DNA of 64,000 nucleotides from Bacteriovoracaceae bacterium (GCA_947447665.1 CANFJX010000001.1:211911-275910), one strand, 5' to 3'. Counted from the first letter of the stretch, positions 17,973-59,420 are shown. The notes: generated by a model from the sequence alone, not told the origin. Numbers and translations: made by a program.

Positions 17973-18617
17973 ATGAGGCTAATCAATAAGCAGATTATGC
18001 TCATCGATGATGATGACGTACTACTCAAACTACTCACTCGCACACTAGAAACTCGAGGCTGCATCGTTCACTCCTGCAATCACATCAGAGAAGCTTTAAA
18101 GCTCATCACGGACCATGTTCCGGACTTAATCATACTAGATCTCAACATGCCTCAATTTGACGGCTTTACTTTTTTAAAGTTCAGACAAAAAAACGAACTT
18201 ATTTCGACCATCCCTGTTCTCGTTTTAAGTGGAACGAAGAGCCAAGAAGAGGCACAAAAAGCTCTAGAACTCGGCGCAGCCCACTTTATTTCTAAGCCTT
18301 TTGAAAGTCGAATTATTCTACAAAAAGTAAGATCTATTTTTCAATCAAAGGAACGCCTATCGTATCAATTTCCGGCCAGCGCCCAACCATTAGCCACAGC
18401 AGAAATCCAAGCATCTATTATTGAACAGGGCCATAGTCAAATCAAGATCGAGAGTCAGGTTAAATTCTGCGCCGGAAAATCAGTCGTCCTTATGTCAGAT
18501 GAATATCCTGGAAATAGTGAAGGTCCATCTCAATTTAAAATTGATGACAGCCCGGCCGAACTCAACCAAGGTCTTTTTAAAACATTACTAACGAGTCTAG
18601 GTATTGACACCCGATGA
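17973..18617 (+). CDS. Response regulator receiver protein with a C-terminal extension
   Basis: MLIDDDDVLLKLL...DLIILDLNMPQFDG...K matches the CheY-like phospho-acceptor pattern. Confidence 0.7.
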   Translation: MRLINKQIMLIDDDDVLLKLLTRTLETRGCIVHSCNHIREALKLITDHVPDLIILDLNMPQFDGFTFLKFRQKNELISTIPVLVLSGTKSQEEAQKALELGAAHFISKPFESRIILQKVRSIFQSKERLSYQFPASAQPLATAEIQASIIEQGHSQIKIESQVKFCAGKSVVLMSDEYPGNSEGPSQFKIDDSPAELNQGLFKTLLTSLGIDTR

Positions 18618-21900: not shown

Positions 21901-22164
21901 GAAAACATCTTTTTGTAAAATCGCATGAGCGCAGAAGGCGAAATCCCGCGGGGTTTCACTCACATCAAGTCCTACCTTAGACTTGAACCACTGCCGATTT
22001 TCATCGATGAGACTAATCAGCGCAATCGGAGCCCCACAAATTTTAGCGGCGAGATCCGTGAGATCATCGAAAACCTGCTCGGCCCGGGTATCGAGCACAT
22101 CATAGGACCGAAGGGCTTGCAATCGCTCAATTTCGTGAGTTGGGATATTCGCAGTTTTCATCAA
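18928..22164 (-). CDS. Hybrid sensor histidine kinase (GAF - multiple PAS - HisKA - HATPase - REC - HPt), cytoplasmic
   Basis: It has an N-terminal GAF domain, three PAS-like segments, the H-box [20 protein letters not shown] and a G-box GTGLGL. The receiver is [13 protein letters not shown]...[12 protein letters not shown] and the C-terminus has an HPt domain ([11 protein letters not shown]). Confidence 0.85.
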
Positions 22165-26100: not shown

Positions 26101-26190
26101 TGGCGGAGAGAGTGGGATTCGAACCCACGTTAGACTTTCATCTAAACACGCTTTCCAAGCGTGCGCCTTCAGCCACTCGGCCATCTCTCC
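26101..26190 (-). tRNA. tRNA-Ser (anticodon GGA)
   Basis: The reverse complement folds as a class II tRNA: acceptor GGAGAGA/TCTCTCC, anticodon stem CACGC/GCGTG with loop TTGGAAA (GGA), a long variable arm, T-arm GTGGGTTCGAATCCCAC and a 3' CCA. Confidence 0.85.
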
Positions 26191-26244: not shown

Positions 26245-26994
26245 CTAGGCCGCACGTCCGTTTCTCGCAGAGCAATCTTCCATCAGCTTGGCGGCCTCAG
26301 CCTCGATGGCAGCTTTAAGAATTTCACCTACCCAGGCGCTCGCCTGTTTTTTAACTTCATCCCGAATGAGCTGACTTAAGAAGGTATCCTTCAGTTCAGA
26401 GAAAACCTGGGTGGCAATCCCTTCGGCCTGCCGCTTCATTGAGGTCTGCAAGATATCAAACGCGAGCTGATCAACCCGACCACTCAAGCTTACGTCCTTA
26501 AATTCGGAGGTAACGACCCTAGAGGCCACTGCATCATCTACCTGAACTTGTTCAAATTCTTCCATCATCCCGTCCATCATTCCTTCTTTCATCAAATTTG
26601 AGACTAACTGATAAGTGGCCATCCAAGTGTCCTGAAGCTCTTGTGTCCAATTGTCCGAGTAAAAGTAGGCGAGAGTACCAATGAGCGCCTTACCGACCCA
26701 TTCTAAATGCTCAGTTTTAGCTCCGTATTCAATATGACGCATGCCCATATTTTTTAAATAAATTTCTAATTTTTTTGTATTTTCAATGTTCTCAACTATA
26801 AATGCTAGTGATTCGGCCAGAGCCATTTTTTGAATCGAGAATGACTCGACAGAAAAAAGTTTCCTGAGCTCAGAGTGCTCACTCAAAAGAACTTCATAGA
26901 AATGATCGACAAAGTCGTCTGCTATACTAAGAATTGGCTGAAAGGATCGCTTAAGCAAAGAGGGATTAATCGACATACTCATCATCCTTGTCAA
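26245..26994 (-). CDS. Single-domain bacterial haemoglobin (3/3 globin, Vitreoscilla-Hb-like) with a roughly 100-aa C-terminal extension
   Basis: It aligns by eye to VHb: FYEVLLSEHSELRKLF, the IENTKKL region, proximal-His region MRHIEYGAKTEHLEWVGKAL. No FNR-type reductase domain is present. Confidence 0.65.
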   Translation of the reverse strand: MTRMMSMSINPSLLKRSFQPILSIADDFVDHFYEVLLSEHSELRKLFSVESFSIQKMALAESLAFIVENIENTKKLEIYLKNMGMRHIEYGAKTEHLEWVGKALIGTLAYFYSDNWTQELQDTWMATYQLVSNLMKEGMMDGMMEEFEQVQVDDAVASRVVTSEFKDVSLSGRVDQLAFDILQTSMKRQAEGIATQVFSELKDTFLSQLIRDEVKKQASAWVGEILKAAIEAEAAKLMEDCSARNGRAA

Positions 26995-27145
26995 GTTTTG
27001 AAGGCCAAATCATTCTGATTTGTCCAACAAATTGATCGGACTTCCAAGCACTACCCTTTAATTACTTTGAGTGAAAATTATCGAATATTCCAAGATGGCA
27101 CTTTCCATTTAGAATTTATTTACCTAGTATATAAAGAAATACAAA

Positions 27146-29887
27146 ATGAGCGAATTATTAACCCCAGAATCCTATCAAGAATTTTATGCCGAGTGCGAAG
27201 AAATCATCGCTCGGGTCTCCCAATACCTGACCGAGATGGACAAAAACAAGCAAAACGCTACCCTAATCGATTCAGTTTACCGAGACATTCACACCATTAA
27301 AGGTTCAGCTCAGCTTTTTGGCTTTTCAGAAATTGGCAAAATCGCACACGCAATGGAAGCGTCTCTTGAGCCAGCGCGCCGAAGAAATATCCCACTCAGC
27401 CCTGACTGGATGGATTGCCTCCTCTCGTGCCTGGATCTAATCGAGCGGCTAATTAAAGCCAAAAAGGACCCCATCCTCGGGTATAAAATCGACCAGGATA
27501 CCATCTATCTCACCGTTAGCCATCTCATCGAAGCAGCTACGAGAAACTTTAAAACTGACCTTTTCGTCACTAAGGATTTTTTTGTGCCGATTGAAACACC
27601 CGACAGAAGGCAAATTTCACAATCAAGCGAATCTCTGCTCTCCGACCATTCGCTCCTATCTCCAGAAACCCAGACTCACTCTCAGAACTCCGCTCAGTCT
27701 CGAGAAAAAGAAGAGACCTCCAGCACCAATAAGGAGTCTGCATCGACCATTCGGGTGCAAGTCACTCTTCTAGACCGACTCATGAACTTGGTAGGAGAAA
27801 TGGTTCTAGTTCGAAACCAAGTTCTTCAATACTCTCATGATCATGAAGATTTCACTCTCCTGAACCTGAGTCAAAAGCTTGATCTCGTCACCAGTGAACT
27901 TCAAGAGGAGGTGATGAAGACTAGAATGCAACCGATCGGCACCATTCTCTCGAAATTCACACGTTTCGTCCGAGATCTAGCCCGAGATCTCAACAAGACC
28001 ATCGAAATTTCAATCGAGGGTGCTGAAACAGAACTAGACAAAACCCTGATCGAAGCCATTAAAGATCCGCTCACCCACATCATTCGGAATGCCTGCGACC
28101 ACGGGATTGAGGATGCCGAGGAGCGGAGAAAGTTTAGCAAAGCTCCGACTGGAAAAATATTGGTCAGTTCGCTCCAAGAAAGCGGCCAAGTCGTCGTAGA
28201 AATCCTTGATGATGGAAGGGGTCTCGATCCAAAAAAGCTACTCAGCAAAGCGATTGAGAAAAAATTTATCTCACAGGAGCAGGCCCAGCTCCTCTCAGAT
28301 CGTGAAATTTTTCAGCTTATTTTCATACCTGGATTTTCAACTGCCGATAAAGTAAATCCTGTATCGGGACGCGGCGTCGGGATGGACGTCGTAAAAACAA
28401 ACATTGAGAAGATCGGTGGCACGGTTGAAATAAAGAGCGAACTCAATCGCGGAACTTGTATTCGTCTTAGAATTCCCCTCACCCTGGCCATCGTCCCGGC
28501 GCTCATCGTCCGCTTCAAAAACAATCGATTTGCCATCCCTCAAGTCAAGCTCCTAGAACTGGTACGAGTCGACGCATCAGAGACCCAAAACAAGCTTGAG
28601 TTTCTCCAAGGAAAGCCCGTTTTTAGGTTAAGGGGAAATTTACTTCCTCTCGTATCGCTAGATGAAATCATCGAAGAAAAATCCGCAGACGCATCACAAG
28701 AAAGCTTAAAACGACAAACAGAAAACGGCGTCAATATCATTGTGCTTGCGACTGACTCTGGCCCTTTTGGCTTGATCGTTGACGAAATTTTGGACACAGC
28801 TGACATCGTTGTTAAGCCGTTAGCTAAGTTTTTTAGAAAGCTGATGATTTATTCTGGTGCAACTATCATGGGCGATGGAAGTGTGTCTTTGATTTTTGAC
28901 GTACTTGGCATTGCCGCAAAAGCGAATCTCAATCAAAATCGGAGTCGCAACCAGGAGCTGGGTACTCGAATCCAAACTAGAGGCTCTCAAAACCAGCCAG
29001 AAACGCAGGAGATGCTTTTATTCTCACTAAAATCAGATGGAAACTTTACCATCCCTCTTTGCCTCGTGCAGCGACTCGAGGAATTCTCAAGGCAAGAAAT
29101 TGAGGTTTCTGGGCGGCACCGAATTGTGCAGTATCGAGACGCCGTGCTTCCCCTCATCTCGCTCAATCAAGTTTTGGGCTTCAGTGCACCCGAAGGCGAA
29201 TCACCACCCACAGCCCAAGCAGAATCCGAGAAGGTGCCTATCATTGTTATCCAAAAGCGAAATCGACTCTACGGGATCGAGGTAGACCGAATCATTGACA
29301 TTTTCCTTGCCGATCGCGAAATCGAAGACCCGATTAGGGAAACTCCAGGAATCTTGGGCAACATCATTCTTGGAAATGAAGTTTCTACCGTAATTGACGT
29401 ACTGAGCGTCATTGACTTAATGACCGGACAGGTAGATTCTAAAAAAGAAAGTCACGCAAGAGAAGCGCCTCAGGCTTTAAAAGAACTGATGACGTCAAAA
29501 CCTCTTCGCATTCTCTTTGCTGAAGATACGATATTTTTTGTCAAGCAGGTCAGTAAAATCCTCACCTCGCAAGGGCATCATGTAACTCACGCAGGAGATG
29601 GAGCCCAAGCGCTCGAAATTCTTGAGAAGTCTCGGCCAGGTGAATTCGACTTAGTTCTGTCGGATATTGAAATGCCTAAGCTCAATGGATTTCAGCTCGC
29701 TCAAAAGATTAGATCCCTCAAGGAATTTTCGGGTATTCCCATGATTGCACTAACAACGCGAATGAGAGAATCCGATATCGAGCGCGGGAAAAACGTTGGA
29801 TTTAACCGGTACATTGAAAAACTAAAAAGCGATCAACTCATCGAAGCCATTCAGGAGATCTCTCATGAGCGAACCCTCTCTCACTAG
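27146..29887 (+). CDS. cheA: Hybrid chemotaxis histidine kinase CheA (HPt - dimerisation - HATPase - CheW-like x2-3 - REC)
   Basis: It has the HPt motif HTIKGSAQLFG, a Ser/Thr-rich linker, HATPase (IRNACDHGIE..., GRGVGMDVV), CheW-like segments and a C-terminal receiver (ILFAEDTIFF...LSDIEMPKLNGF). Confidence 0.85.
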   Translation: MSELLTPESYQEFYAECEEIIARVSQYLTEMDKNKQNATLIDSVYRDIHTIKGSAQLFGFSEIGKIAHAMEASLEPARRRNIPLSPDWMDCLLSCLDLIERLIKAKKDPILGYKIDQDTIYLTVSHLIEAATRNFKTDLFVTKDFFVPIETPDRRQISQSSESLLSDHSLLSPETQTHSQNSAQSREKEETSSTNKESASTIRVQVTLLDRLMNLVGEMVLVRNQVLQYSHDHEDFTLLNLSQKLDLVTSELQEEVMKTRMQPIGTILSKFTRFVRDLARDLNKTIEISIEGAETELDKTLIEAIKDPLTHIIRNACDHGIEDAEERRKFSKAPTGKILVSSLQESGQVVVEILDDGRGLDPKKLLSKAIEKKFISQEQAQLLSDREIFQLIFIPGFSTADKVNPVSGRGVGMDVVKTNIEKIGGTVEIKSELNRGTCIRLRIPLTLAIVPALIVRFKNNRFAIPQVKLLELVRVDASETQNKLEFLQGKPVFRLRGNLLPLVSLDEIIEEKSADASQESLKRQTENGVNIIVLATDSGPFGLIVDEILDTADIVVKPLAKFFRKLMIYSGATIMGDGSVSLIFDVLGIAAKANLNQNRSRNQELGTRIQTRGSQNQPETQEMLLFSLKSDGNFTIPLCLVQRLEEFSRQEIEVSGRHRIVQYRDAVLPLISLNQVLGFSAPEGESPPTAQAESEKVPIIVIQKRNRLYGIEVDRIIDIFLADREIEDPIRETPGILGNIILGNEVSTVIDVLSVIDLMTGQVDSKKESHAREAPQALKELMTSKPLRILFAEDTIFFVKQVSKILTSQGHHVTHAGDGAQALEILEKSRPGEFDLVLSDIEMPKLNGFQLAQKIRSLKEFSGIPMIALTTRMRESDIERGKNVGFNRYIEKLKSDQLIEAIQEISHERTLSH

Positions 29888-30347
29888 TAATCAAGAAGCA
29901 CCGAAATCAGCAGAAAATCGAGACACTGTCCAGTTTTCTACTTTTTTTGTCTCAGGTCGGCTCTATGGAATTGACGTGAGTTCAGTCCAAGAGGTGACTA
30001 AGTCACTTCCAATCACTGAGGTCCCGCTAGCGCCGAATTATATTCACGGATTAATCAATCTCAGAGGCCAAATTGCCACGGCTGTAAGCCTGAGAGACCT
30101 TTTCGAATTGAAAGACCCAGCACCGAACGAATTTATGAACGTAGTCTGTCGTCTCGACGGAGTGCTTATTTCCCTTCTGGTGGATGAAATCGGGGATGTC
30201 ATCGAACTCAGCCAAAACTCCTTTGAGCCTACACCCGACACGATATCTCCTAAGGTAGCTAAATTTATGGACGGAATTTATAAAATACCAGGTCATTTAC
30301 TCAGTATAATTGAAGTAAAAAGAGTACTTGGCGTTTTGAACGAATAG
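29865..30347 (+). CDS. cheW: Chemotaxis coupling protein CheW
   Basis: It has the single CheW domain pattern (FFVSGRLYGIDVSSVQEV); 160 aa. Confidence 0.8.
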   Translation: MSEPSLTSNQEAPKSAENRDTVQFSTFFVSGRLYGIDVSSVQEVTKSLPITEVPLAPNYIHGLINLRGQIATAVSLRDLFELKDPAPNEFMNVVCRLDGVLISLLVDEIGDVIELSQNSFEPTPDTISPKVAKFMDGIYKIPGHLLSIIEVKRVLGVLNE

Positions 30348-30381
30348 TTTATTAATTTAATAAAATAGAAGGAATATTAAA

Positions 30382-31968
30382 ATGCAAGAGACAGAAATAG
30401 GTACTAAAAGAGCTAGCGTTTCAATGGTGGTGGATTCTGATTTTTCTTCGGCAGAAGAAATTAAGAGCCTTTTGGAAAATTCTCCTACTAATGTTATTTA
30501 TTGCGATATCCACAATAATTTTACTATTCGCTATATGAATAGAAAAAGTATCCAAACGCTTCAAAGTTTAAGTAAACACCTTCCTATCTCTCCTGACAAA
30601 ATGATAGGGGCCAGTATTGATGTCTTCCACAAGGCGCCAGAACACCAGAGGAGGATGCTTGCCAATGACAAGAACCTACCGCATCACGCCGTCATTGAGC
30701 TAGGTCCTGAAAAACTTGATCTCTTAGTCTCTCCGATCTATGACGGCAAAGGAAAATATGTGGGGGCCATGCTCACTTGGGACATCATCACAAAAAGGCT
30801 TGAGGTCGAGAGCAATCTCGCCCGAATTGAGTCGATGATGGAGAATGCTCCCGTCAATACGCTACTTGCAGACCGGGATTTAAAACTCGTCTACATGAAT
30901 AAGAAAAGTCGGGAGACCCTCCAAAGACTCGAGAAGTTCCTGCCCAAACCGGTCAATCAGCTCATTGGTCAATCGATTGACATCTTTCACAAAAATCCAG
31001 CTCATCAGCGAAAAATGCTCGCAGATGACCGGCTCTTGCCCCACAAGGCGAGGATTCAGGTAGGTGATCAAATCCTTGAGCTTTTAGTCTCAGGAATTTA
31101 TGATCAGAATCGAACTTATCTAGGCCCTATGGTCACTTGGGACATTATCACGGAGAAAGTAGCCCTTGCTAAAACTCTAGAGAGCACGGCCAATGAACTG
31201 GGAGCTGCAGCCAATGCGCTGTTTTCTACAGCCACCCGACTTTCGGAAAACTCTGAGCTTACCGCTAGTCAATCGATTCTGGCAGCCGCCAATACGGAGG
31301 AAGTGTCCAAGGGCGTCCAAACAGTTGCAACGAACACCGAAGAGATGGTGGCATCGATCAAGGAGATCGCGCGAAACTCTTCTGAAGGAGCCAACCTTTC
31401 TCGGGACACTCTAGCAAAAGCCCAAGAAACGAACAAGACGATCACCCAGCTCGGTCTCAGCAGCCAGGAGATTGGGAATGTAATTAAGGTAATTAGTTCG
31501 ATTGCTCAACAGACCAACCTATTAGCGCTCAATGCGACGATCGAGGCAGCTCGCGCCGGAGATGCAGGAAAGGGGTTCGCGGTTGTCGCCAATGAGGTCA
31601 AGGAACTCGCTAAGCAGACCGCCAAAGCAACCGAGGATATCACTAATCGAATTGGTGCAATTCAAAAGGACTCCCAAGGTGCTGTCGCTGCCATTGGCGG
31701 AATCTCAAACGTCATCGAGAAACTAAATAGCATCTCTATGGCTATTGCAGCTTCGATTGAGGAACAGACTGCGACGACTAATGAGGTCGCTCGGGTGGTC
31801 AAGGTCTCCAATCAAGGCGTCGATGGGATCGCAGAAGTCGTGAAATCAGTATCTTCAGCGGCGAAGCAAAGCTCTGCCGGAGCCTCCCAAACGATGGAAG
31901 CCGCCAAAAGTTTGGCCAGCCTTGCAGATCGTCTGAAAAAGCTCGTAAATAGTGTGCAAGCTGAATGA
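30382..31968 (+). CDS. Cytoplasmic methyl-accepting chemotaxis protein with two tandem PAS-like sensing modules
   Basis: There is no TM segment. Two roughly 120-aa repeats ([25 protein letters not shown]... and [25 protein letters not shown]...) are followed by the MCP signalling domain ([31 protein letters not shown]). Confidence 0.85.
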
Positions 31969-33056
31969 AGGTACTTATTGTTGACGACTCGGTCGTATTT
32001 AGATCCCAAATCGCTGCTGCACTGACAGGCACCCCCCAAATCGAGGTCGTCGGATCAGCTCCGAATGGGAGCATTGCGCTTCAGAAGCTTGATCAGCTCT
32101 CGGTGGATCTAGTGACCCTGGATATGGAGATGCCAGACATGGACGGCATCGCTGTACTAAAGGCGATTCGAGAACGCAAACATAAGGTACGAGTCATCAT
32201 ATTTTCTGCCCAAACGATCCGAGGCGCAGAAAAGGCGCTTCAGGCGTTGAAGGCGGGAGCAGACGACGTGATCTCAAAGCCGTCCAGCAGCGAAGAGGCG
32301 ACGGATTACAAATCCCCTCAAGAGCGAATTCGGGAAATTCTAGTGCCAAAAATTCACCAATTCCTAGAAAAACGGGAGAAAACTTCGCTTACTCCAGAAC
32401 GCCGCGAAGAAAAACTCGAACTATTTCCCAAAACTCCCCCTCTAGGAGCATTCGAAAAACTCCCTCTGACGGGATTTCAGCCCTCAGCTGTGGTCATTGC
32501 TTCTTCGACCGGAGGCCCGACTGCCCTTGAAACCATTTTTACGCAAATCCCACAATCATTAGAGATCCCTATAATCATAGCCCAACACATGCCACCCGTT
32601 TTTACACAAATACTAGCCAAGAGACTAGGGGACCTCTCGAAGAAGCCATGCAACGAGGCTAAACATGGCGATATTTTAAAGCCTGGTCACATTTATGTCG
32701 CACCTGGAGACTACCACCTCCAAGTAGCCCACTCCTCAGGTGAAGTCGTACTGGAACTCAATCAAGGCCCGCAAAGGAACTCTGTTAGACCAGCTGCCGA
32801 TTATCTTTTTGAATCTGCGGCGGCGGTTTTTAGAAATCGGCTTTTAGGAATCGTACTTACCGGAATGGGGCAAGATGGTCTACAGGGCTCTATTGCCATT
32901 AAGCAAGCCGGGGGCCGCATCCTGATCCAGGACGAACCATCGTGTGTCGTCTTTGGCATGCCGGGAGCGGTATTCAAAGCCAATTGCTATGATGGAATGG
33001 GAGATCTCCAGATGATTTCCGGCGTACTACAAAAGTTATCGGAAAACCTACATTAA
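31965..33056 (+). CDS. cheB: Chemotaxis response regulator protein-glutamate methylesterase CheB
   Basis: The receiver ([11 protein letters not shown]...[10 protein letters not shown]) is followed by a methylesterase domain ([16 protein letters not shown]). Confidence 0.85.
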
Positions 33057-33072
33057 ACTAAGGGGGGAACTG

Positions 33073-33459
33073 ATGAAAAACTTTGGACAATTCCTAGTTG
33101 AAAAAAAAATTCTCTCCAAGGAGCATCTACTCGACTGTTTTTTAGAGCAGCTCTCCTCAATGCCAGCGATTTGTCAACTAGCAAGAGATAAAAACATTTT
33201 AAGCACAGACCAAATTCTCCAGGCTCTCGAGCTTCAGTCAAAAAATGAAATCGGATTTAAAGAGGCATGCCTGAATTTAGGACTTTGGAGCAATGAGACT
33301 GATACAGCCGTCAAAAAAGAGCTATCATTGATCCGTACGCCCCTTGGAAATATCCTACTCAAACGCGGTTTGATCAGCCTCCATGATCTCACCAGGGCTC
33401 TGGACGAATTTTTCTCTGATGATAGTCATTTATCATCTATTCCTAATTCCTCTTCTTGA
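33073..33459 (+). CDS. Standalone T2SSE_N/MshEN-like domain protein (putative c-di-GMP-binding)
   Basis: The 128-aa protein has repeated segments fitting the MshEN consensus RLGxxLLxxGLIxxxxLxxALxxQ. These are FGQFLVEKKILSKEHLLDCFLEQ, KNILSTDQILQALELQ and LGNILLKRGLISLHDLTRALDEFF. Confidence 0.45.
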   Translation: MKNFGQFLVEKKILSKEHLLDCFLEQLSSMPAICQLARDKNILSTDQILQALELQSKNEIGFKEACLNLGLWSNETDTAVKKELSLIRTPLGNILLKRGLISLHDLTRALDEFFSDDSHLSSIPNSSS

Positions 33460-33513
33460 ATTCCACCCGAAAAATGCCATAATTAGAGCATAGAAGGCTG
33501 GAAATTAAATACG

Positions 33514-34353
33514 ATGGAATTCTCTCAAGAAAAAATCCGATTTTTTGCAAAATATATCGAAAAAGAACTGGGAATTGTCTATTCAGACTCCAACTACTTC
33601 CAACTCGAACACAGACTGAGCGATATCACTTCTCAGCTAGGACTTAAAAGTCTCGAGGACCTCTGGATGAGGGCGACCTCAGGAATCGATACTCAACTCA
33701 AGGAACTCCTTCTAGACATTGCAACTAATAACGAAACCAGTTTTTTCAGAGACCCTTCCCTATTTGTCGGTCTCGTAAAATCGATTGTCCCCGAGCTTTT
33801 GTCGGCTAACCCCCAACTGAAGGAACTTCGAATCTGGAGCGCTGCCTGCAGTAATGGCCAAGAGCCCTACTCGATTGCAATGGCCTTAGATGAGGCTCGA
33901 TCTGAAAATCCAAATTTTCCCAATTATAAAATCCTTGCCACCGATTTTTCTGAGCGGGTTCTTTCTCGAACCAAAGCAAGAACGTATTCCCAATTGGAGT
34001 TGCAGCGAGGACTTTCGGCTTCTCGTCTACAAAGATATTTTGATCCCGGATCAGCGCCTAACACTTGGGTACTCAATAGCCGAATTCCGCCCTCAAACTT
34101 TCAGTTTCAACAACTCAACCTTCTCGATCCCTGGAATTTTGACCATAATTTTCATATCGTGTTTTGTCGTAACGTTCTCATTTACCAAAACGTCGACAAT
34201 AAAATTCGAGTGATCGACAAGATTTTAAAAGTTTTTGAGAAGGATGCTTATCTTGCCCTGGGAGCTGCCGAGAGTCTACTAGGTATCTCAGACTTGTTTG
34301 AACAGGTGCATTTCGAAAATTCCGTTTTTTATCGAAAAAAGCGGTCGAATTAA
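33514..34353 (+). CDS. cheR: Chemotaxis protein methyltransferase CheR
   Basis: The SAM-binding region IWSAACSNGQEPYSIAM and the CheR N-terminal helical domain are present. Confidence 0.85.
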   Translation: MEFSQEKIRFFAKYIEKELGIVYSDSNYFQLEHRLSDITSQLGLKSLEDLWMRATSGIDTQLKELLLDIATNNETSFFRDPSLFVGLVKSIVPELLSANPQLKELRIWSAACSNGQEPYSIAMALDEARSENPNFPNYKILATDFSERVLSRTKARTYSQLELQRGLSASRLQRYFDPGSAPNTWVLNSRIPPSNFQFQQLNLLDPWNFDHNFHIVFCRNVLIYQNVDNKIRVIDKILKVFEKDAYLALGAAESLLGISDLFEQVHFENSVFYRKKRSN

Positions 34354-37067
34354 GCTGCAACAAGCTCCTCTGGATCAATGACGGTAATTGTTCTACCCCC
34401 CAGGACAAGATTGCCTTGAATACCTCGCTGGTCCGCTATAGGAGGTTCTAAGTTACCGTTTGAACTCGCGATATCTATGATTTGCTTCACTTTGAAAGCA
34501 AGATACCTCTGATGACTCGCCATGACGATGACTTGAATTCGACTTCCGGTCGAGGCATTCACTTCCATCGCCGAACCTAAAAGCTCACTCATATTTAAGA
34601 TGGGTAAGATTTGTTTGCGATAAGGAATCACATTAAAATTACCGGACTTCTGAATTGAGTCAGCATCAAACTCCTCAAGCCTAAACACTGAATTTCTAGG
34701 AATGGCAAAAACCCCTGGAATGCTGAGCTCAAAAAGTAACCAGTCCGCGCTCTGAGTTGACCCATTTTGTAATTGAGTTTGTAACTTCTTCTCTTTACTT
34801 TTGAACAGTTCGGTCCGTATGTGAGCGATCTTCGCGATGCCATCAACACTCAAAAGAAGGCCAATGGTTCCATCCGATAAGAAGGTTGCTCCAGAATATG
34901 CGTCTAGTTTTTTTAGACTCGGCGCAAGCTCCCGCACGACTGCATCTTCAAAGTCACGAATCTCGTCCACAATGAGTCCAAAATTTTTACCGCCCTCAGC
35001 TTTCACAACCACTACCGTGAACTGACTCGGAAGAACCGACAGCTGAGAAGAAAACAGAACAGCTCCAAGCGAGACAAGCGGAACTGACTCCGCTTCGCTT
35101 TCTCGGAGTAAAATCCCCCCCTCAAGTTCACAAATGAGTTGTTTTCGGACCTGCTCGTCGATCTGAATAAGCCGGACAATTTGATCTTGAGCCACTCCAA
35201 ATTCCTGTCCCCCTGCCATTACGAAAAGACAGTTCTTAATATGAACTGACTTCGGGATCGGCAACTCCAAAACAAAACAGGTCCCCTTTGATTTTTCAGT
35301 TTCAATTCGGATTCGCCCGCCAATACCCTCGACACTCGTTTTTACAGCACTGGTACCCACGCCACGACCAGAAATCTCCGTAGTCTGTGCTGCAGTACTG
35401 AATCCCGACTCAAAAATAAATCCATAGACTTCAGCATCCGGCATTAGAGCAGCTGCGGCCTCAGTCCTCATCCCCTTGCTCACAATTTTTTTTCGGATCG
35501 CCTCTACATCGATGCCCTTACCATCGTCGCGGACTTCGACCATGACGTGGTCATTCTTGAGAAAGGCCCGGACCAAGAGCATCCCTTTTTCACTTTTACC
35601 TAATCTCACTCGCTCCTCTGGAGTCTCGATCCCGTGATCAATACTGTTACGAAGCAAATGACTCATCGATGCGTTGAGAACTTCAGAAATGGAACTATCC
35701 ACTAGTAAATCTTCGCCTTCTATACGAAGCGAGCAGGATTTTTTGGTTTTTTCGGTTACGTCTCGCACCAGCCGTGGCAAAGTTTTAAAGACATTTTTTA
35801 ATGAGACTTTTCTGACCTCGGTAATTTTTCCCTGCACCATGGCGTTTACTTTGTGAAGCTCGTCGAGCAAGTCTCCGAGTTGGGTTACATCTTTGTCGGA
35901 CGAGTATCGCTTCTCGAGCGTTAAGACTGACTTATTGACCATATTCCTCACGACGGTCATCTCGCCAGAGGCGCGCAGTAACTGATCTAAAAGCTGAATA
36001 TCGATTTTAATACTGTTTTCTTTCACAGGGTGCGCGGTGCTCGCATTGGCGCTCGAGTCAGCTTCTTGTGCAGCTTCTTGTGTATCCGAGGGTGGTTCAA
36101 TATTGCCACCTCCTAAGATCACAGCGTCTGAAAAAACCTGGCAAAGATCCTCTAAATTATGTTCTTGCTGGATCTGCGTATCAAACTCTTTCAACAGTCC
36201 TCTAGAAATATCGACTACCTTGAGAGTGGCGGAGATAAAGGGTTGAGAAATTTTCAGGGTATTACCTTGGACCCGCTTCAAGACATCTTCGAAGCGATGG
36301 TAAAATCGATGGAGAGTTTGAGGCTGAAAAAAACTACTGGCCCCCTTGATTGTATGAACTATTCCAAAAAGGCTATTGAGCAATTCCTTCTTGGTAGGGT
36401 TCTGCTCCAACTCAAGAGCGAGGCTTTCAATCTGCTCAAAGCATCCCTTGGTTTCCTCAATAAAAGCGCAGAGTAGCTCCAAATCTTCGTAAATCGAGGC
36501 AATCCTTTTAATCAACTCGCCTGATAGCACCGAGGCGAGAGCCCCTCGATCGAAAGGCTTCTCTAAAAGCCCTACTTGGCTGAGGGGTTCGATTTTAGAT
36601 AGCAGTTCGGCTCGTTGACTATCCGCTAAAATGAGAAGTGGAACGACCTCTAAGGCTTTTGTGAATTCTGATCGAAATGCCAAAGCACTCATGTCTCCAA
36701 GCTCGGCGGGACAGATGACCAATAATATTCGAGAATGGTCTTGCCGTAAGCGTTGAAGAGCCTCTGCTCCAGAATGAGCCCTGACAATTTCAATACCCCA
36801 GTCGGCGCTGAGAAGCTCGGCCTGGTTAGTCGACTCCGGATCTAATGCGCAAATTAAAACGGTCGGTTTTATTTTCGGGTTAGCAGTCTTGAGCGGTAAA
36901 GTTCTGGACTCAATTTCTTTACAAAGATTGGCCCAGCTCATCCCTGCGTCAGGTGATTGATTCATCTGAGCAGACCTCGTACCATCAGAATTTGTAGGTT
37001 CATGACTCAATTTACTTCCTATGTTCCCTTTCGGAACAGAAGGATAGAAACTTGAGTCGAGAGGCAC
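34350..37067 (-). CDS. Second hybrid CheA-like histidine kinase (degenerate N-terminal REC-like - HPt - HATPase - CheW-like x2)
   Basis: It has the HPt motif HTIKGASSFF and HATPase motifs (LRNSIDHGIE, GRGVGTSAV), followed by two CheW-like segments. It is convergent with cheR. Confidence 0.8.
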   Translation of the reverse strand: MPLDSSFYPSVPKGNIGSKLSHEPTNSDGTRSAQMNQSPDAGMSWANLCKEIESRTLPLKTANPKIKPTVLICALDPESTNQAELLSADWGIEIVRAHSGAEALQRLRQDHSRILLVICPAELGDMSALAFRSEFTKALEVVPLLILADSQRAELLSKIEPLSQVGLLEKPFDRGALASVLSGELIKRIASIYEDLELLCAFIEETKGCFEQIESLALELEQNPTKKELLNSLFGIVHTIKGASSFFQPQTLHRFYHRFEDVLKRVQGNTLKISQPFISATLKVVDISRGLLKEFDTQIQQEHNLEDLCQVFSDAVILGGGNIEPPSDTQEAAQEADSSANASTAHPVKENSIKIDIQLLDQLLRASGEMTVVRNMVNKSVLTLEKRYSSDKDVTQLGDLLDELHKVNAMVQGKITEVRKVSLKNVFKTLPRLVRDVTEKTKKSCSLRIEGEDLLVDSSISEVLNASMSHLLRNSIDHGIETPEERVRLGKSEKGMLLVRAFLKNDHVMVEVRDDGKGIDVEAIRKKIVSKGMRTEAAAALMPDAEVYGFIFESGFSTAAQTTEISGRGVGTSAVKTSVEGIGGRIRIETEKSKGTCFVLELPIPKSVHIKNCLFVMAGGQEFGVAQDQIVRLIQIDEQVRKQLICELEGGILLRESEAESVPLVSLGAVLFSSQLSVLPSQFTVVVVKAEGGKNFGLIVDEIRDFEDAVVRELAPSLKKLDAYSGATFLSDGTIGLLLSVDGIAKIAHIRTELFKSKEKKLQTQLQNGSTQSADWLLFELSIPGVFAIPRNSVFRLEEFDADSIQKSGNFNVIPYRKQILPILNMSELLGSAMEVNASTGSRIQVIVMASHQRYLAFKVKQIIDIASSNGNLEPPIADQRGIQGNLVLGGRTITVIDPEELVAA

Positions 37068-37088
37068 TAGGGGCTAGAGGGCAGGTGA

Positions 37089-37373
37089 CTAACGCTTGCC
37101 GCCTTTTTGCATCTGCTGAAGCATGTCCATGGCAGCCCGAAGCTGAGCATCCATCTGCTGTCCGCCTCCTCGAGCTGCGCCCTTCATGGGGCCTCGGTTC
37201 ATACCGCCCATCATCTGCTGCATTCGACCCATGGCCTCATTCATGTTCTTGGCACCAGGAAAGGCCATCTTCATCATCTGCTCACTGGCCTGCTTAAGCT
37301 TGAAGAAGACAAAGACATTAATTGCAGTTAAAACGATGACCAAAATCCAACTCAAAATAATCCAAAATGACAT
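37089..37373 (-). CDS. Small membrane protein with a Met/Gln/Gly-rich low-complexity tail (94 aa)
   Basis: It has an N-terminal TM helix (FWIILSWILVIVLTAINVFVFF) and a GAGG-like RBS about 13 nt upstream. It lies 22 nt upstream of, and co-oriented with, cheA2. Confidence 0.4.
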   Translation of the reverse strand: MSFWIILSWILVIVLTAINVFVFFKLKQASEQMMKMAFPGAKNMNEAMGRMQQMMGGMNRGPMKGAARGGGQQMDAQLRAAMDMLQQMQKGGKR

Positions 37374-38935: not shown

Positions 38936-39069
38936 GAACTCGGACCGACCTACGCTCAAGCCAACCTCATCGCAGGCATAGAGATTGCACAAGCCGACGC
39001 CCATCAGCGTGGCTATTTTTTGCCCCGTTTAATGTGATCTCAATTTTTCTGTCTGAAGGAGGATTCTCA

Positions 39070-40038
39070 ATGCGTAGCGCGCTTATTGCAATCTCTGCAT
39101 TTTGTATCGGCACGACCATCGTGGGCTGTACCAAAAACAATTCCAATCAAGATTTATTAGGAGGCTCGGGTGCGGACCGCACCTCAACGAGCGGTAATGG
39201 AGGAAGCACCGAAGCAGTGGGCTGGACTCTGAAATTGGCATCAAAATGTGCTGATACAGTAAGTGCAACTGACTGCATCGGATACTATGGATTTTCTATT
39301 GATGAGCTAGGGCACTACCAAGTAGGCCCTGGTCCAACCGGTGAAGTAAGAACGGGAACACTCAAAGCGGAAGACATGACTGCCTTGAACACACTTCTCC
39401 ACGGCACGGTCTCGGGCGGCTCTGATCAGAGTGGAGGTCTCTCTCTACTAGGAACAGAAGACCACATTAGCCTCGAGTCTGCAACGCCATCGGAAGACTT
39501 GATTACGCTCTCCAACACGGCTACACAAGGGCAGAAACTTCTTCGCACTTCGGGCCTCAACTTGTACTTCACGTTGAAATCTGCCGACGAGGCAAAAGCC
39601 CTTTATGCGAGCGTTCGTAAACTTGCAGAGGTTTATTACGCCCCGATGCCTTTTCCTGATTCTTGTGAAGATGGCATCAACTCACTTCAAAACCTAGTTG
39701 CCAGTGTGACAAGCTGTAAAGCAGACAGTGAGTGTGGATATTTTGATTCCAAACTGACTTTAGTTGCGCCAGATACTCAGGGTTTCATTCTGGCCGATAA
39801 CTGTGCGCGGGTACTCCCCTTATCGGTAGGAAACATTGAGGCCATCAAGACCAACAAAGCTAAGATTGAGGAAACCTGGTCACAGGTAACCCAGGCCTGC
39901 GGCGAAAAGTTCAAAAGAACTGATTGCACTCAAACCCAGGGCTTCAACCTCAACCGCGTCGCAGCAGTTTGTCAACAAGGTGTTTGCACGAGACCCAACT
40001 CCTTGGTCCTCACTACCGGAACTGCGTCTTTCCTTTAA
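39070..40038 (+). CDS. Cys-rich hypothetical lipoprotein
   Basis: The ATG at 39070 is preceded by GAAGGAGGA and followed by a lipobox (TTIVGC). The mature part contains about 12 Cys; no motif was recognised. Confidence 0.45.
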   Translation: MRSALIAISAFCIGTTIVGCTKNNSNQDLLGGSGADRTSTSGNGGSTEAVGWTLKLASKCADTVSATDCIGYYGFSIDELGHYQVGPGPTGEVRTGTLKAEDMTALNTLLHGTVSGGSDQSGGLSLLGTEDHISLESATPSEDLITLSNTATQGQKLLRTSGLNLYFTLKSADEAKALYASVRKLAEVYYAPMPFPDSCEDGINSLQNLVASVTSCKADSECGYFDSKLTLVAPDTQGFILADNCARVLPLSVGNIEAIKTNKAKIEETWSQVTQACGEKFKRTDCTQTQGFNLNRVAAVCQQGVCTRPNSLVLTTGTASFL

Positions 40039-40140
40039 GCTAGCCTCATCGATTACGGATTGAACCAGGATTGGGGAACTCCAATCCTGGTTTTTTTTTC
40101 TGGCATTTGGGTTGCAGCTTAGTTCGGCACGGGGGTTAAG

Positions 40141-40785
40141 ATGCATCCAATTTCTAAAAAAAGCTTTTCATACCTACTCAGTTCTTTATCACTCATCCTT
40201 GGCACTTGCCTCGCGGGTGCCTCTCTCTCGGCCTGCATCGAGGCAGATCACGAGCTGAACTCAGGCGAGAATCAAAACTACCCGTCATCAGGATTTGACC
40301 CTGATGAAAATGCGACTCCCGATAGTTTAGCAGAAGGGTGGAGTCAGCTGATCATGATTGCGAATTATGCAAAAACGACTTTAGACTCAATGGCCCACTT
40401 CAATACTTCAAGAAATGCTTGCGGAAAAGATGCCTACGGAGCCATCCAATCCAGTGAACTTTGGAATCAGATGGTCGAATACATCAACGCGGCCATTCAA
40501 GCGCAGCCGCGTTCTGAAGCCTACTGCACCCCTAACAGCCAGGAGCTAGACGCCAATGGTTACTACAAAAAATCGATGGACGGCAATGTCGAGATCAAAC
40601 TAGCTGATGGCAGTAAACGCCAACTATTTGAAACAAGAGGGTCAGATATTTGTACCCTCATTCAAGATCCAGCCTTAGCTAAAGGTCTCTTAAGTGTTTT
40701 GAATCAGCTCGTCCTCATTGCCGATAAGGAAGATTGTCCCCACGGTTGGGGCTCAGCTCTCGGATCAAATCACGGAAGATCATGA
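40141..40785 (+). CDS. Hypothetical secreted/lipoprotein (214 aa)
   Basis: It has a signal peptide with a lipobox-like LSAC sequence; no motif was recognised. Confidence 0.4.
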   Translation: MHPISKKSFSYLLSSLSLILGTCLAGASLSACIEADHELNSGENQNYPSSGFDPDENATPDSLAEGWSQLIMIANYAKTTLDSMAHFNTSRNACGKDAYGAIQSSELWNQMVEYINAAIQAQPRSEAYCTPNSQELDANGYYKKSMDGNVEIKLADGSKRQLFETRGSDICTLIQDPALAKGLLSVLNQLVLIADKEDCPHGWGSALGSNHGRS

Positions 40786-40836: not shown

Positions 40837-42198
40837 TTATTCTAATCCGTATCGCCTTCTCTTCCGCCAGAGTGTACTCAGATTAATTCCCAAAATTCCG
40901 GCAGCCTCCTCGAGTGTGGTCGCTGTCGACAAAACATGGCGGATATGTTGCTTCTCGATATCCTCGAGGCTGATGTCACTTTGAGTGAGAGCAGCCAGGG
41001 GAAGTTGACTCGGAAATCCAGACTGAGTGTGCTCTAAAACTCGATCAGGGAGATCCTCGATCGTAACTTGATCTCCAGTGCAGAGAATTGCGGCTCTTTC
41101 GAGGGCATTTTTGAGCTCGCGAATATTACCCGGCCAGCCGTAACCTTGGATCGCCTGCTTAGCTGCATCATTTAACGGTCGGGCTTTTCGCCCTGTCGAA
41201 ACAAAGGAGCGCGCAAGCAATTGGTCTGCGAGGGTTAAGATATCCTCTGGGCGCTGCCTCAGAGAAGGCATATGTAAATCAATCACGTTCAAGCGAAAAT
41301 AGAGATCCTCACGAAATCTTCCTGCTTTCACTTCTTTTTCTAGATCTTTATTAGTGGCAGCAATAATTCTGACGTCCACTCGTATTGTTTTCGTATCTCC
41401 GACGCGTTCGAATTCACGGTCCTGCAAGAAACGAAGAAGTTTAGTTTGGAGATTAGGCGAAACCTCTCCGATTTCATCCAGAAAGACAGTGCCCGTATCA
41501 GCAACTTGCAACCGCCCCATCTTATCCTTGACCGCACCCGTGAAGGCACCCCTCACATGACCGAAGAGCTCGCTTTCGAGGAGGTTCTCAGAAAGCGTTG
41601 CACAATTCACTACAGCGAATGGTCCTTTAGTTCTTGGACTGGCATCGTGCATGAGTTTCGCCAAGAGGGTTTTCCCTGTCCCGCTTTCGCCCGTAATTAA
41701 AATCGTTGAGTCCGTCACTGCAACTTTTTTTGCTGTATCCAGGACCTTGTGCATTCGTGCATTTTGCGTAGCGATCGACGAGGGCTCCGACAGCGCATCG
41801 ACCTGATCTCTGAGCTTTGTATTCTCTTCTCTGAGCTTGCGATAATCCTCGATCCTCTCAACGAGGTGCTCCAGCTGATCCGGGGTGAAAGGCTTGACCA
41901 AGTAGTCGTAAGCTCCGCTTTTGATCGCCGCAACTGCAGTATCAATCGTCCCATAAGCCGTCATCATAACTACGGTGGCAGCCGGGAAATATTCCCTGGC
42001 TTTTCCGAGGAGGTCGAGTCCACTCATCCCGTCCATTCGCAAGTCAGTAAGAATAATATCAGGGACTGATTTTCTCATCAAAGTGATGGCCATCTCCCCA
42101 CTTTCCGCTAACTCAACCTGATGCCCGATGTGCTTCAAAGCAGCTTCAATAGTAGTGAGAATACTTTTTTCGTCATCAACAACCAGAATACGTGCCAC
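40837..42198 (-). CDS. Sigma-54-dependent response regulator (NtrC family)
   Basis: It has REC, AAA+ (GESGTGKTLLAKLMH, GAFTGA, ESELFGH) and a C-terminal Fis HTH. Confidence 0.85.
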   Translation of the reverse strand: MARILVVDDEKSILTTIEAALKHIGHQVELAESGEMAITLMRKSVPDIILTDLRMDGMSGLDLLGKAREYFPAATVVMMTAYGTIDTAVAAIKSGAYDYLVKPFTPDQLEHLVERIEDYRKLREENTKLRDQVDALSEPSSIATQNARMHKVLDTAKKVAVTDSTILITGESGTGKTLLAKLMHDASPRTKGPFAVVNCATLSENLLESELFGHVRGAFTGAVKDKMGRLQVADTGTVFLDEIGEVSPNLQTKLLRFLQDREFERVGDTKTIRVDVRIIAATNKDLEKEVKAGRFREDLYFRLNVIDLHMPSLRQRPEDILTLADQLLARSFVSTGRKARPLNDAAKQAIQGYGWPGNIRELKNALERAAILCTGDQVTIEDLPDRVLEHTQSGFPSQLPLAALTQSDISLEDIEKQHIRHVLSTATTLEEAAGILGINLSTLWRKRRRYGLE

Positions 42199-42233
42199 AA
42201 GATCTCCCTTCCAAAATAGAATTCCCTACTCCA

Positions 42234-43610
42234 CTAAAGACAGTTTTTAACCCCAGTCGCGGACCGTGCCAGGCTGCCATCACGATAGCCAGGGTTAAAC
42301 TCTGCTCTGCCTGCTTTTTGAGTGATCGGTAACCTAAACCCGAACTCAGCTCCCGATCCCGGCTGACTGGAAACCCAAATTTCCCCTCCATGGGACGTAA
42401 CAATCTCTTTGGCAATGGCAAGACCTGCACCCACCACTCCAGATCGAGCCACACGGAGATCATAATAAGGATTAAATTTTTCAAAAACTCTCTCTTGTCG
42501 ATGAAGCTCGATTCCAGGCCCCGTATCTTTCACTCGAATTTGTGCCCAATCATTTGCAGTATCGAGATAGACCCCAACCCTGCCCCCCCTTGGCGTGTGC
42601 CGCAAGGCATTGGTTAGTAAATTAGACAGTGCCCATGCAATCTTCGTAGCATCGATTGTAATCATTAAATTTTTACGGGTCCCTACACTATCGGTAGGAA
42701 GCGCGATCGACTGAGTCAGCTGAATCTCTTTTTCCTCTGCTTGCATTCGGAAGGACTGTACAGCATGACTCAGAAGCTTTCCAAGATCAATTTTTTGAAG
42801 TTCGAGTCGCTGAGCTAAGATATCAAATCGAGAAACCGTCATTAAATCATCAAGAAGTCCACGAAGGCGATCGACATCTTGAGCGCAGGTCGAGATCAAA
42901 TTCTGGTGCGTTAAATCGGGAAATTGATCTTTCGATTTATCAAGAAGGTGAATCGCCATCGTTAAACTGGTGACAGGGGTCTTAACTTCGTGAGACAGGG
43001 TTCCAAGAAAATGTGCTTTGGCCTCCTGGCTCTCTTTCAAAAGTGTCACATCCTGGGCTAAAATGAGAAGATTAGGCTCCACGTTTTCCAGCTGGAGTTT
43101 GTCCACTCCTTTCAGATCGAAAGCCACAGGACAAGACTGAACCAAAAAGTATTGTTTCCGATCCTTCCTCTGAAAAACAAACTCCACAGGCAAGCTGCTC
43201 GTCAGCGCCTTCACCACGGCCCCAGCACCAGCCGTCAAGGCACTCTGACCCTGGCGGTCAAACCTAAATCCCACAACCGGGGTTTTTGAAGGCAGATCAA
43301 GAATCCGCTCAGCAATGGGATTTGCATAGAGAACTTCCTGGCCCCTCAGCAGCAGAATACCGTCCGAAATCGATGCTGCAATTAAATCGGCCCTTTGTTT
43401 TTCGACTAAGAGCTTCCCATAGTTGACTAAATAATTTAACTTACTTTGGGCTGCCGCTTTTTTGTGAGAAATGAACCAAACGATGATTACTACACAGCTT
43501 ATCAAGCCGAACTGAATCAGTAAGGCATGCCCGCGAAAAATGATCAGCAACAATCCAATGATCAAGATTTCTGCTAGTGCAAGTAAAAATCGGAACCTGC
43601 TCAACGCCAA
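42234..43610 (-). CDS. Membrane sensor histidine kinase (partner of the NtrC-like regulator)
   Basis: It has two N-terminal TM helices, the H-box LSHEVKTPVTSL, and HATPase N/G boxes. Confidence 0.8.
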   Translation of the reverse strand: MALSRFRFLLALAEILIIGLLLIIFRGHALLIQFGLISCVVIIVWFISHKKAAAQSKLNYLVNYGKLLVEKQRADLIAASISDGILLLRGQEVLYANPIAERILDLPSKTPVVGFRFDRQGQSALTAGAGAVVKALTSSLPVEFVFQRKDRKQYFLVQSCPVAFDLKGVDKLQLENVEPNLLILAQDVTLLKESQEAKAHFLGTLSHEVKTPVTSLTMAIHLLDKSKDQFPDLTHQNLISTCAQDVDRLRGLLDDLMTVSRFDILAQRLELQKIDLGKLLSHAVQSFRMQAEEKEIQLTQSIALPTDSVGTRKNLMITIDATKIAWALSNLLTNALRHTPRGGRVGVYLDTANDWAQIRVKDTGPGIELHRQERVFEKFNPYYDLRVARSGVVGAGLAIAKEIVTSHGGEIWVSSQPGSGAEFGFRLPITQKAGRAEFNPGYRDGSLARSATGVKNCL

Positions 43611-54670: not shown

Positions 54671-54691
54671 TTTTAGCTCATTTCTAAAAAA

Positions 54692-56851: not shown

Positions 56852-56869
56852 GAAATTCCGACCCCCAAT

Positions 56870-59406: not shown

Positions 59407-59420
59407 TCTTCACCTTCTCC

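Follow-up and report, generated by a model that had tools for sequence, protein, structure and literature searches.

Chemosensory systems of class F5 steer flagellar behaviour in the members that have been studied, namely those of Azospirillum, R. centenum, Caulobacter and A. caulinodans. The described systems (A. brasilense Che1, R. centenum Che1, C. crescentus, A. caulinodans) combine a kinase of the layout Hpt-P3-P4-CheW-CheW-REC, without P2, with the gene order cheA-cheW-...-cheB-cheR and with transmembrane receptors of the 38-heptad (38H) class. Two CheW domains occur in ~8% of CheA kinases, nearly all of them of class F5, and a duplicated CheW is found in 99% of F5 CheAs; a REC domain on CheA is seen mainly in the classes F3, F5, ACF (alternative cellular functions) and Tfp (type IV pili), P2 is lacking in over half of all CheAs, and an N-terminal REC has been reported in "several cases" (PMC10782961). 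Class F5 pairs with 38H receptors and class F7 with 36H receptors (PMC6759762). The Aer2/Che2-type systems of P. aeruginosa, V. cholerae and V. vulnificus belong to F7 and encode, inside a che cluster with CheB, CheR, CheD, CheY and an F7 CheA, a soluble receptor containing between one and three haem-PAS domains; the Aer2 receptors known so far are of the 36H class and bear HAMP, and their systems do not drive flagella directly (PMC10107281). Pairs of kinases within one cluster have also been described. In R. centenum Che3, a pathway leading from CheA3 via CheS3 to CheY3, CheA3 phosphorylates the N-terminal receiver of the second kinase, CheS3, by which transfer from kinase to kinase in a Che-like pathway has been demonstrated (PMC3868531), and in the cytoplasmic receptor cluster of R. 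sphaeroides two CheA-family proteins, CheA3 and CheA4, operate together with soluble receptors (PMC10782961). Here we describe a chemosensory cluster from a Bacteriovoracaceae bacterium (GCA_947447665.1 CANFJX010000001.1:211911-275910, a stretch of 64,000 nt referred to as the window, the whole of which is numbered for all coordinates) that encodes two complete CheA kinases, CheA1 and CheA2, and a soluble Aer2-type receptor.

The cluster examined spans positions 26245-37373. Genes and domains were called from a listing of open reading frames (ORFs) combined with Pfam and NCBIfam profile searches, in which the domain E-values of the cluster proteins lay far under chance level. Six plus-strand genes, cheA1-cheW-MCP-cheB-X-cheR (MCP, methyl-accepting chemotaxis protein), follow each other with overlaps or gaps of at most 54 nt; a globin gene is divergent from them, and a 94-aa ORF and cheA2 are convergent with them. 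The identical sequence is present in public metagenome assemblies, up to a contig of 1.02 Mb. A preliminary description of the window had seen here two CheA paralogs with fused CheW-like and receiver domains, CheA-CheW-CheW-REC and REC-like-HPt-CheA-CheW-CheW, bracketing cheW, a soluble MCP, cheB and cheR. Both architectures, with the C-terminal REC of CheA1 and the N-terminal REC-like domain of CheA2, and all of the named genes are borne out by the Pfam and NCBIfam annotation, although a conserved gene of 128 codons between cheB and cheR (33073-33459) had been overlooked. Its statement that neither kinase has a P2 domain also holds (no P2/CheY-binding family match at E<=0.01 in Pfam), as does its statement that a standalone CheY is absent: when every stop-to-stop ORF of 50 aa or more was searched with a local REC profile, none proved to be a single-domain CheY anywhere in the 64 kb. 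The "supercluster" of that description is one cluster of about nine genes, and the end that it placed at 37373 belongs to the 94-aa ORF and not to CheA2, which occupies 34350-36965.

CheA1 (27146-29887, plus strand, 913 aa) has the layout Hpt (residues 10-100, with H49), P3 (H-kinase_dim, 200-259), P4 (HATPase_c, 307-446), two CheW-like stretches (448-594 and 621-757) and REC (Response_reg, 789-902); the boundaries of the CheW-like (P5) stretches of both kinases were placed with a local CheW profile. Its REC retains an intact active site (E/D/D/T/Y/K). Both kinases retain the P1 histidine within HTIKG and all of the N, G1, F and G2 boxes; in each, Pfam identifies a single Hpt domain, and the linker from P1 to P3 is short, of low complexity and rich in Ser, Gln, Glu and Thr. 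With an F5-type CheA of Azospirillum, encoded in a locus of Che1-like gene order (cheA-cheW-(gap)-cheB-cheR), CheA1 shares 41% identity over residues 198-904, collinear through the second CheW and the REC, whereas its alignment with E. coli CheA is limited to the core. A bootstrapped neighbour-joining tree of P3-P4-P5 with midpoint rooting groups CheA1 with its close relatives at 95% support and places it among double-CheW CheAs, including alphaproteobacterial ones of F5 type, separate from those of E. coli (F7) and Campylobacter (F3) and from CheAs that have P2; CheA2 forms a clade of its own. As a double CheW was found to be almost exclusive to F5 in the survey of CheA domains, CheA1 fits the predominant F5 architecture, judged from domain layout, alignment and tree. 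The F5 combination of a C-terminal REC and no P2 is matched by CheA1 and not by CheA2 taken alone, in which the REC-like domain is N-terminal. A typical ACF CheA has a single CheW and a C-terminal REC, and its pathway ends in an output of its own other than the flagellum, for example a REC-GGDEF protein. The double CheW speaks against ACF, and Pfam detected no response regulator with an output domain in the cluster. In Tfp systems (Chp/Pil-Chp) the CheA has multiple Hpt domains and REC and occurs in a pilG/H/I/J-type setting; here neither multiple Hpt domains nor, in or beside the cluster, any pil genes were found.

CheA2 (34350-36965, minus strand, 871 aa from the start called in public contigs) has a receiver-like domain (~40-146, a weak Response_reg match at E 0.0016), Hpt (163-245, with H204), P3 (H-kinase_dim), P4 (HATPase_c) and two CheW-like stretches (576-715 and 752-862). 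Its N-terminal domain is modelled as a (beta-alpha)5 fold, b1a1 to b5a5, with a predicted local distance difference test score (pLDDT) of 89, and a structure search with it returned 257 PDB matches at E<=1e-3, the top ones all being receiver domains or CheY. At the positions of CheY D12/D13/D57/T87/Y106/K109 it has A/L/P/A/L/K, so that only K109 is kept. Because the acceptor Asp and the acidic pocket have been lost while the modelled fold is that of a receiver, the domain is a pseudo-receiver. A homologue search of 5.8 billion proteins identified ~22 clusters with the full-length CheA2 architecture. Three or four of these are close relatives (48-59% identity) in which the receiver is degenerate likewise; in all others, at 27-40% identity, the REC at the N-terminus is intact. 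The loss of the acceptor Asp and acidic pocket is confined to the subclade of the window protein with P0002, P0003 and P0004, where T87 is replaced too; these residues are intact in P0006, P0008, P0009 and the CheA2 of L026, a locus in a metagenome-assembled genome (MAG) of Bdellovibrionaceae. The CheA2 family is a clade with 100% bootstrap support, and its best outside matches are double-CheW CheAs, including CheA1, at ~30% identity over 700 residues.

Nine loci that encode a CheA2 were inspected, and in eight of them (the window, L086, L088, L026, L089, L141, L142 and L143) its gene neighbours a cluster of CheA1 type. A scan of contigs with peptide patterns derived from the CheA2 alignment, which are generic kinase motifs, returned 80 loci, almost all CheA1-like and L026 alone with two kinases. 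Relative to the CheA1 operon, cheA2 is on the same strand in L026 and L141, convergent in the window, L086, L088 and L143, and divergent in L142. The CheA2 module has thus been rearranged repeatedly yet has stayed adjacent to the CheA1 cluster.

The two states of the CheA2 receiver differ in the company that they keep. In each of the loci where the receiver is intact, an orthologue of an Hpt-REC protein (31-36% identity to the L026 copy) is encoded too, usually directly adjoining CheA2, and CheY genes are present in these loci as well. Among the relatives of the cluster, a CheY is encoded in those of L026, L092 and L141-L143. Neither Hpt-REC nor CheY was found in the three pseudo-receiver loci, and the REC domains of the window are confined to CheA1, CheB, an NtrC-like regulator, a hybrid kinase and ORFs of 214 and 247 aa, besides the weak match in CheA2. 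From this co-occurrence with intact receivers, and from the absence of both at pseudo-receiver loci, we infer an ancestral relay from CheA1 through CheY or Hpt-REC to the CheA2 receiver that has been lost in the window lineage. The nearest precedent for the relay of the intact-receiver relatives is R. centenum Che3, where two kinases are likewise encoded in one Che-like cluster and one has an N-terminal receiver phosphorylated by a CheA. CheS3, however, is of the HisKA type, whereas both kinases described here are full double-CheW CheAs, and the CheA2 receiver of the window has no phosphorylatable Asp. In the other two-kinase system, that of R. sphaeroides, CheA3 and CheA4 are complementary partial kinases, unlike the pair found here.

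The receptor (30382-31968, plus strand; Pfam PAS and MCPsignal) has two Aer2-type haem-PAS domains that are followed directly by the signalling domain, with no hydrophobic or transmembrane segment and no HAMP match in Pfam. Residues 19-263 match the NCBIfam Aer2 model at 3.6e-70, and the second PAS matches PAS structures of P. aeruginosa Aer2 at E ~1e-18. The hallmarks of O2 sensing by Aer2 are a haem-ligating E-eta His and an O2-stabilising I-beta Trp (PMC10107281); both PAS copies have the His motif FHK(A/N)P(E/A)HQR, shared as FHKNPAHQR with the Aer2 systems, and the Trp in a TW context, from which binding of haem and O2 can be predicted. With the hairpin tip at D394, each arm comprises ~134 residues or ~19 heptads, ~38 in total, and alignment to the 36H receptor Tsr requires indels of seven residues. 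Having an Aer2-type sensor but no HAMP and ~38 heptads, the receptor is a hybrid of features and, as judged from its sequence, probably an Aer2-type sensor on an F5/38H scaffold. Plausible methylation sites are the EE pairs in the contexts NTEEMVAS and SIEEQTAT. The receptor shares its solubility, its haem-PAS domains and its position in a che cluster with CheB and CheR with the Aer2/Che2-type F7 systems. Membership of that class, which the Aer2 match had brought up, was rejected because the receptor has ~38 heptads and no HAMP, no CheD is encoded and the kinases have another architecture; a CheY, also part of F7 systems, is missing too. From class F5 the cluster differs in having no CheY, a second CheA with an N-terminal REC, a soluble receptor instead of a transmembrane one, an MshEN-like gene and a linked globin.

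The globin-domain protein is encoded at 26245-26976 on the minus strand (~243 aa) and has a globin domain (Pfam Globin 5e-9; NCBIfam flavohaemoprotein N-terminal region 3e-18) with a charged C-terminal extension. The divergent globin/cheA1 pair is also found in L086 (globin 48% identity) and L089 (36%). Two double-CheW/REC CheAs, P0060 and P0064, have a truncated globin (Bac_globin, residues 157-265) between Hpt and P3, the usual position of P2, a gene fusion that hints that globins work with this type of kinase. A further truncated globin is encoded among CheX and REC genes in L143 (4748-5182, minus strand).

Taken together, we consider it moderately probable, and likelier than the other readings, that the cluster encodes a cytoplasmic array of F5 lineage for haem-based sensing of a gas, probably O2, with two active CheA kinases between which an ancestral phosphorelay has been dismantled. 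The soluble haem-PAS receptor would form a complex with CheW and the paired CheW-like domains of CheA1 and CheA2, and its adaptation would proceed by methylation through CheB and CheR. CheA1 may act as a standard F5-type hybrid kinase whose own receiver serves as a phosphate sink or modulator. In its ancestral form, CheA2 would have had a phosphorylatable N-terminal receiver and been accompanied by the Hpt-REC protein and CheY, in a cascade from CheA1 through Hpt-REC to the CheA2 receiver that resembles that from CheA3 to CheS3 in R. centenum. In the lineage of the window this relay would have been taken apart: the receiver is a pseudo-receiver, the cluster has neither Hpt-REC nor CheY, and the MshEN-like protein is present without an Hpt half. 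As both kinases are predicted to have remained catalytically intact while the relay is gone, CheA2 could be controlled via the receptor complex, possibly by way of the pseudo-receiver or the product of gene X, rather than by phosphorylation. As candidate outputs one may consider a CheY from another part of the genome, the receiver of CheA1, or a target linked to cyclic di-GMP (c-di-GMP). With no CheY in the cluster, an Aer2-like receptor and an MshEN-like protein, the output may be a non-canonical one.

Several observations weigh against this interpretation. The grouping of CheA1 with alphaproteobacterial F5 kinases has just 25% support in the rough neighbour-joining tree, and CheA2 is a long branch that midpoint rooting puts outside all other CheAs. 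In the 10 kb around P0011, a relative of CheA2, there is no cluster of CheA1 type, and the relatives compared are metagenome contigs of uncertain taxonomy. The direction of the relay is read from gene content alone. Heptad counts taken from the arms do not strictly distinguish a 38H domain from a 36H one that has short linkers, and the known Aer2 receptors are, unlike this one, 36H proteins of class F7 with HAMP. Finally, the absence of CheY from the window weakens the case for a flagellar output.

The gene between cheB and cheR (33073-33459, plus strand) encodes a protein of 128 aa, X128, whose AlphaFold model (pLDDT 92) is all-helical, with eight helices in four hairpins, and resembles the MshEN_N fold, a recognised module for binding c-di-GMP, of the N-domains of MshE, PilF-GSPII and XpsE. 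Foldseek gave no significant match in the PDB and Pfam T2SSE_N no match; the NCBIfam model of an MshE-related c-di-GMP motif scored 39.9 bits against a cutoff of 38. The relaxed MshEN motif consists of two 24-residue stretches, [RKPN]hGxxhhxx[GAS]hhxxxxhxxxhxx[QNKRYWST], separated by a 5-residue spacer (Wang et al., PMC5013675). X128 keeps the 24+5+24 spacing twice and passes 10/11, 6/11, 5/11 and 10/11 motif positions in motifs I to IV, respectively. In the X family, Gln at position 24 of motifs I and II (equivalent to Q32 and Q61 of MshE) is invariant in 71/71 members, the position-1 Arg is replaced by L/Y/F or Pro, and the full relaxed motif is passed in motifs I-III by 0/71 members. On the basis of model and spacing X128 is an MshEN_N-like tandem module, for which ligand binding is plausible from the sequence, and it is a candidate for an adaptor that binds c-di-GMP or a partner protein. 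Described modules of this kind (V. cholerae MshE, T. thermophilus PilF GSPII, B. bacteriovorus Bd2402, Cyanothece cce_1044) have the same motif pairs and spacer, and Wang et al. list stand-alone (MshEN_N)2 proteins, that is, the same tandem layout, and fusions of MshEN_N to CheA and CheX, so that an association with chemotaxis proteins is already in the literature (PMC5013675). X128 differs from these modules in having no position-1 Arg and in the degeneration of two of its four motifs, and the usual Hpt-like partner of the X family is not among the architectures in the supplementary passages of the same paper.

A word-indexed search with X128 recovered itself and one relative only, whereas an exhaustive HMMER search reached far wider and defined a family without a Pfam match; it comprises 519 representatives (50% identity level), of which 284 score under 1e-10. 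Among the best 150 matches, 11 are X-only and 139 have 200-430 aa, with X at the N-terminus and a helical C-terminal part; an Hpt-type H-x-h-[KR]-G motif occurs in the C-terminal part of 73 of these 139, and Pfam recognises Hpt in some of the longer proteins and REC in a few. Close homologues lie between cheB and cheR (or cheY) in clusters of the same type (L086, L088, L090, L091, L092, L136/137, L139, L143). At pseudo-receiver loci they are X-only (122-128 aa), and in L092, L137, L139 and L143 they are X-Hpt-like or X-Hpt-REC; In the window lineage the Hpt half of X128 has disappeared along with the other parts of the relay. X-like genes of more distant kinship (21-36% identity) are found outside che clusters, directly after a gene for a CheY-like receiver, at ~20 metagenome loci (L095, L101, L103, L104, L108, L112-L115, L117, L119, L121-L124, L126, L128, L133, L134). 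They came from a metagenome scan with a narrower X alignment, most matches of which are such REC-paired genes and not members of che clusters, and suggest a recurrent pair of a REC and an MshEN_N-like gene.

It is possible, though we hold it only tentatively, that X128 is a genuine c-di-GMP receptor that couples the second messenger to the kinase complex, or relays the state of the complex to a c-di-GMP-dependent target, and so replaces the lost phosphorelay; this would be compatible with the gas-sensing array proposed above. The NCBIfam score above the curated cutoff, the conserved spacing and the invariant glutamines point in this direction, as do precedents in Wang et al., who report that imperfect motifs still bind c-di-GMP and cite the Bdellovibrio REC-MshEN_N protein Bd2402 for tight binding despite imperfect motifs (PMC5013675), together with the CheA and CheX fusions and the (MshEN_N)2 proteins listed there. 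To judge from locus tags a few apart, Bd2402 would neighbour the CheA homologue Bd2406. In L089, moreover, a gene for a REC-HD_5 protein of HD-GYP type (12469-13788, minus strand) lies directly beside CheA2. Against this stand the missing position-1 Arg, the degeneration of motifs II and III, with no family member passing I-III, and the negative Foldseek and T2SSE_N results; binding is a prediction from sequence and model. A bolder extension, which we regard as rather improbable, is that the cluster represents an unrecognised dual-kinase design in which an F5-type array kinase signals through Hpt-REC to a receiver-gated CheA, with the window lineage having substituted a non-phosphorylatable, MshEN-like and possibly c-di-GMP-bound link to the CheA2 pseudo-receiver.

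The preliminary description had compared the kinases to those of Frz/Wsp/Chp-type pathways and suggested control of gliding or pili. Such an alternative-function pathway (ACF- or Tfp-like), in which the hybrid kinases govern gliding or pilus behaviour instead of flagella, would agree with the lack of a CheY in cluster and window, with the hybrid nature of the kinases, with an Aer2-like receptor, as Aer2 systems do not directly control flagella, and with the MshEN fold of X128, a fold that ATPases for pili and secretion typically have at their N-termini. A Tad/Flp-type pilus cluster is also encoded ~17 kb away. We nevertheless find this unlikely: a double CheW with REC is almost exclusive to F5 and not to ACF or Tfp, each kinase has a single Hpt, there is no adjacent pilus or gliding gene either here or in the syntenic relatives, and unrelated metabolic and transport genes separate the Tad genes from the cluster. 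The Frz/Wsp/Chp analogy likewise gives way to a layout that is F5-like, with one Hpt per kinase and an MCP of ~38H. In the window as a whole, no flagellar, type IVa pilus or gliding genes were found. The Tad/Flp-type cluster itself (53810-61359, minus strand) encodes a T2SSF-family protein, a secretin, RcpC/CpaB, a prepilin peptidase (A24) and a 719-aa fusion of a ParA/CpaE-like protein with a T2SSE/CpaF ATPase, and is adjoined by a gene for an RHS-repeat protein (52091-53800).

A transcriptional output has a model in M. xanthus Che3, a CheY-less Che system that feeds an NtrC-like regulator (PMC3147164). Here, a sigma-54 activator of NtrC type (40837-42198) and a HisKA kinase (42234-43610) form a pair on the minus strand (40837-43610) 3.5 kb past CheA2, which is syntenic in L088 and resembles the arrangement of M. 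xanthus Che3 and CrdA. That the CheY-less cluster acts through this pair appears most improbable, in that four unrelated genes intervene (RadC, DTW and two unknowns), the regulator has its own adjacent kinase, no sigma-54 regulator lies near the distant two-kinase loci L026 and L141-L143, and L088 is so closely related that its synteny is not independent evidence. Equally hard to credit is a CheA2 that is decaying or purely structural and has no signalling role, as its degenerate receiver, the inversion of its gene relative to L026 and L141 and the long branch of its clade might imply, given that its P1 His and N, G1, F and G2 boxes are intact, its full-length frame and 48-59% identity are kept in three related lineages, and the pseudo-receiver is modelled as a well-folded domain.

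CheW (29865-30347, plus strand) matches Pfam CheW at 3e-27, and the first 23 nt of its gene are shared with the 3´ end of cheA1. The methylesterase CheB (31965-33056, plus strand) matches Pfam CheB_methylest at 3e-59 and Response_reg at 4e-27, lies above the curated NCBIfam cutoff for CheB and has an intact receiver (D/D/D/S/K). The methyltransferase CheR (33514-34353, plus strand) matches Pfam CheR at 5e-48, and the 3´ ends of cheR and cheA2 overlap by 4 nt. The 94-aa ORF (37089-37373, minus strand) lies upstream of cheA2 on the same strand and is separated from it by in-frame stops; it has an N-terminal hydrophobic helix and a tail rich in Met, Gly and Gln, and searches of Pfam and NCBIfam gave no significant family match. 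In L086 and L088 it is found at the same position with 89% identity, while the neighbouring CheA2 has only 48-59%. Whether it is part of the chemosensory system is uncertain. A scan for promoters and terminators gave counts equal to those expected from shuffled sequence. Scans of the window with Rfam and for tRNAs found no riboswitch and, as the sole RNA gene, a tRNA-Ser (GGA) at 26101-26190 on the minus strand, between the NHL-repeat gene and the globin gene.

Upstream, the cluster is flanked by genes for threonyl-tRNA synthetase, a PPTase-like protein, the NHL-repeat protein and the tRNA-Ser, and downstream by those for RadC, the DTW protein, two unknowns and the kinase/NtrC-like pair. The best named matches of the threonyl-tRNA synthetase (71-74% identity) are from MAGs of Bdellovibrionia, "Deltaproteobacteria" and Myxococcota; by this marker the source would be a Bdellovibrionota/Myxococcota-like "deltaproteobacterial" MAG. 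Two ORFs of 334 and 214 aa at 39034-40785 (plus strand) have no Pfam match, and ORFs of similar size, also without Pfam matches, are found at the corresponding positions of L088 and L086. The hybrid kinase (18928-22164, minus strand) has GAF, three PAS domains, HisKA, HATPase, REC and Hpt, and adjoins a gene for a 214-aa receiver protein (17973-18617, plus strand) with a C-terminal part of ~90 aa to which no domain was assigned.

In conclusion, double-CheW/REC CheAs such as CheA1 signal the flagellar class F5 and not a Frz/Wsp/Chp-like pathway. Its receptor would extend Aer2-like sensing beyond F7, with a haem sensor on an F5/38H scaffold and a linked globin. The X family, the close members of which lie, where examined, between cheB and cheR in clusters with haem-PAS receptors, is a candidate for the point at which c-di-GMP signalling and chemosensory pathways meet, and the dual-kinase design, if true, would tie haem-based sensing of O2 or NO to second-messenger signalling. 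The rare lineage of CheA2, which is nearly always linked to an F5-type cluster and Hpt-REC, suggests that cascades between two true CheAs exist, an arrangement that is as yet unstudied. As a natural derivative that would have dispensed with the relay and kept both kinases, the cluster of the window offers a way to ask what role a pseudo-receiver plays in a CheA.

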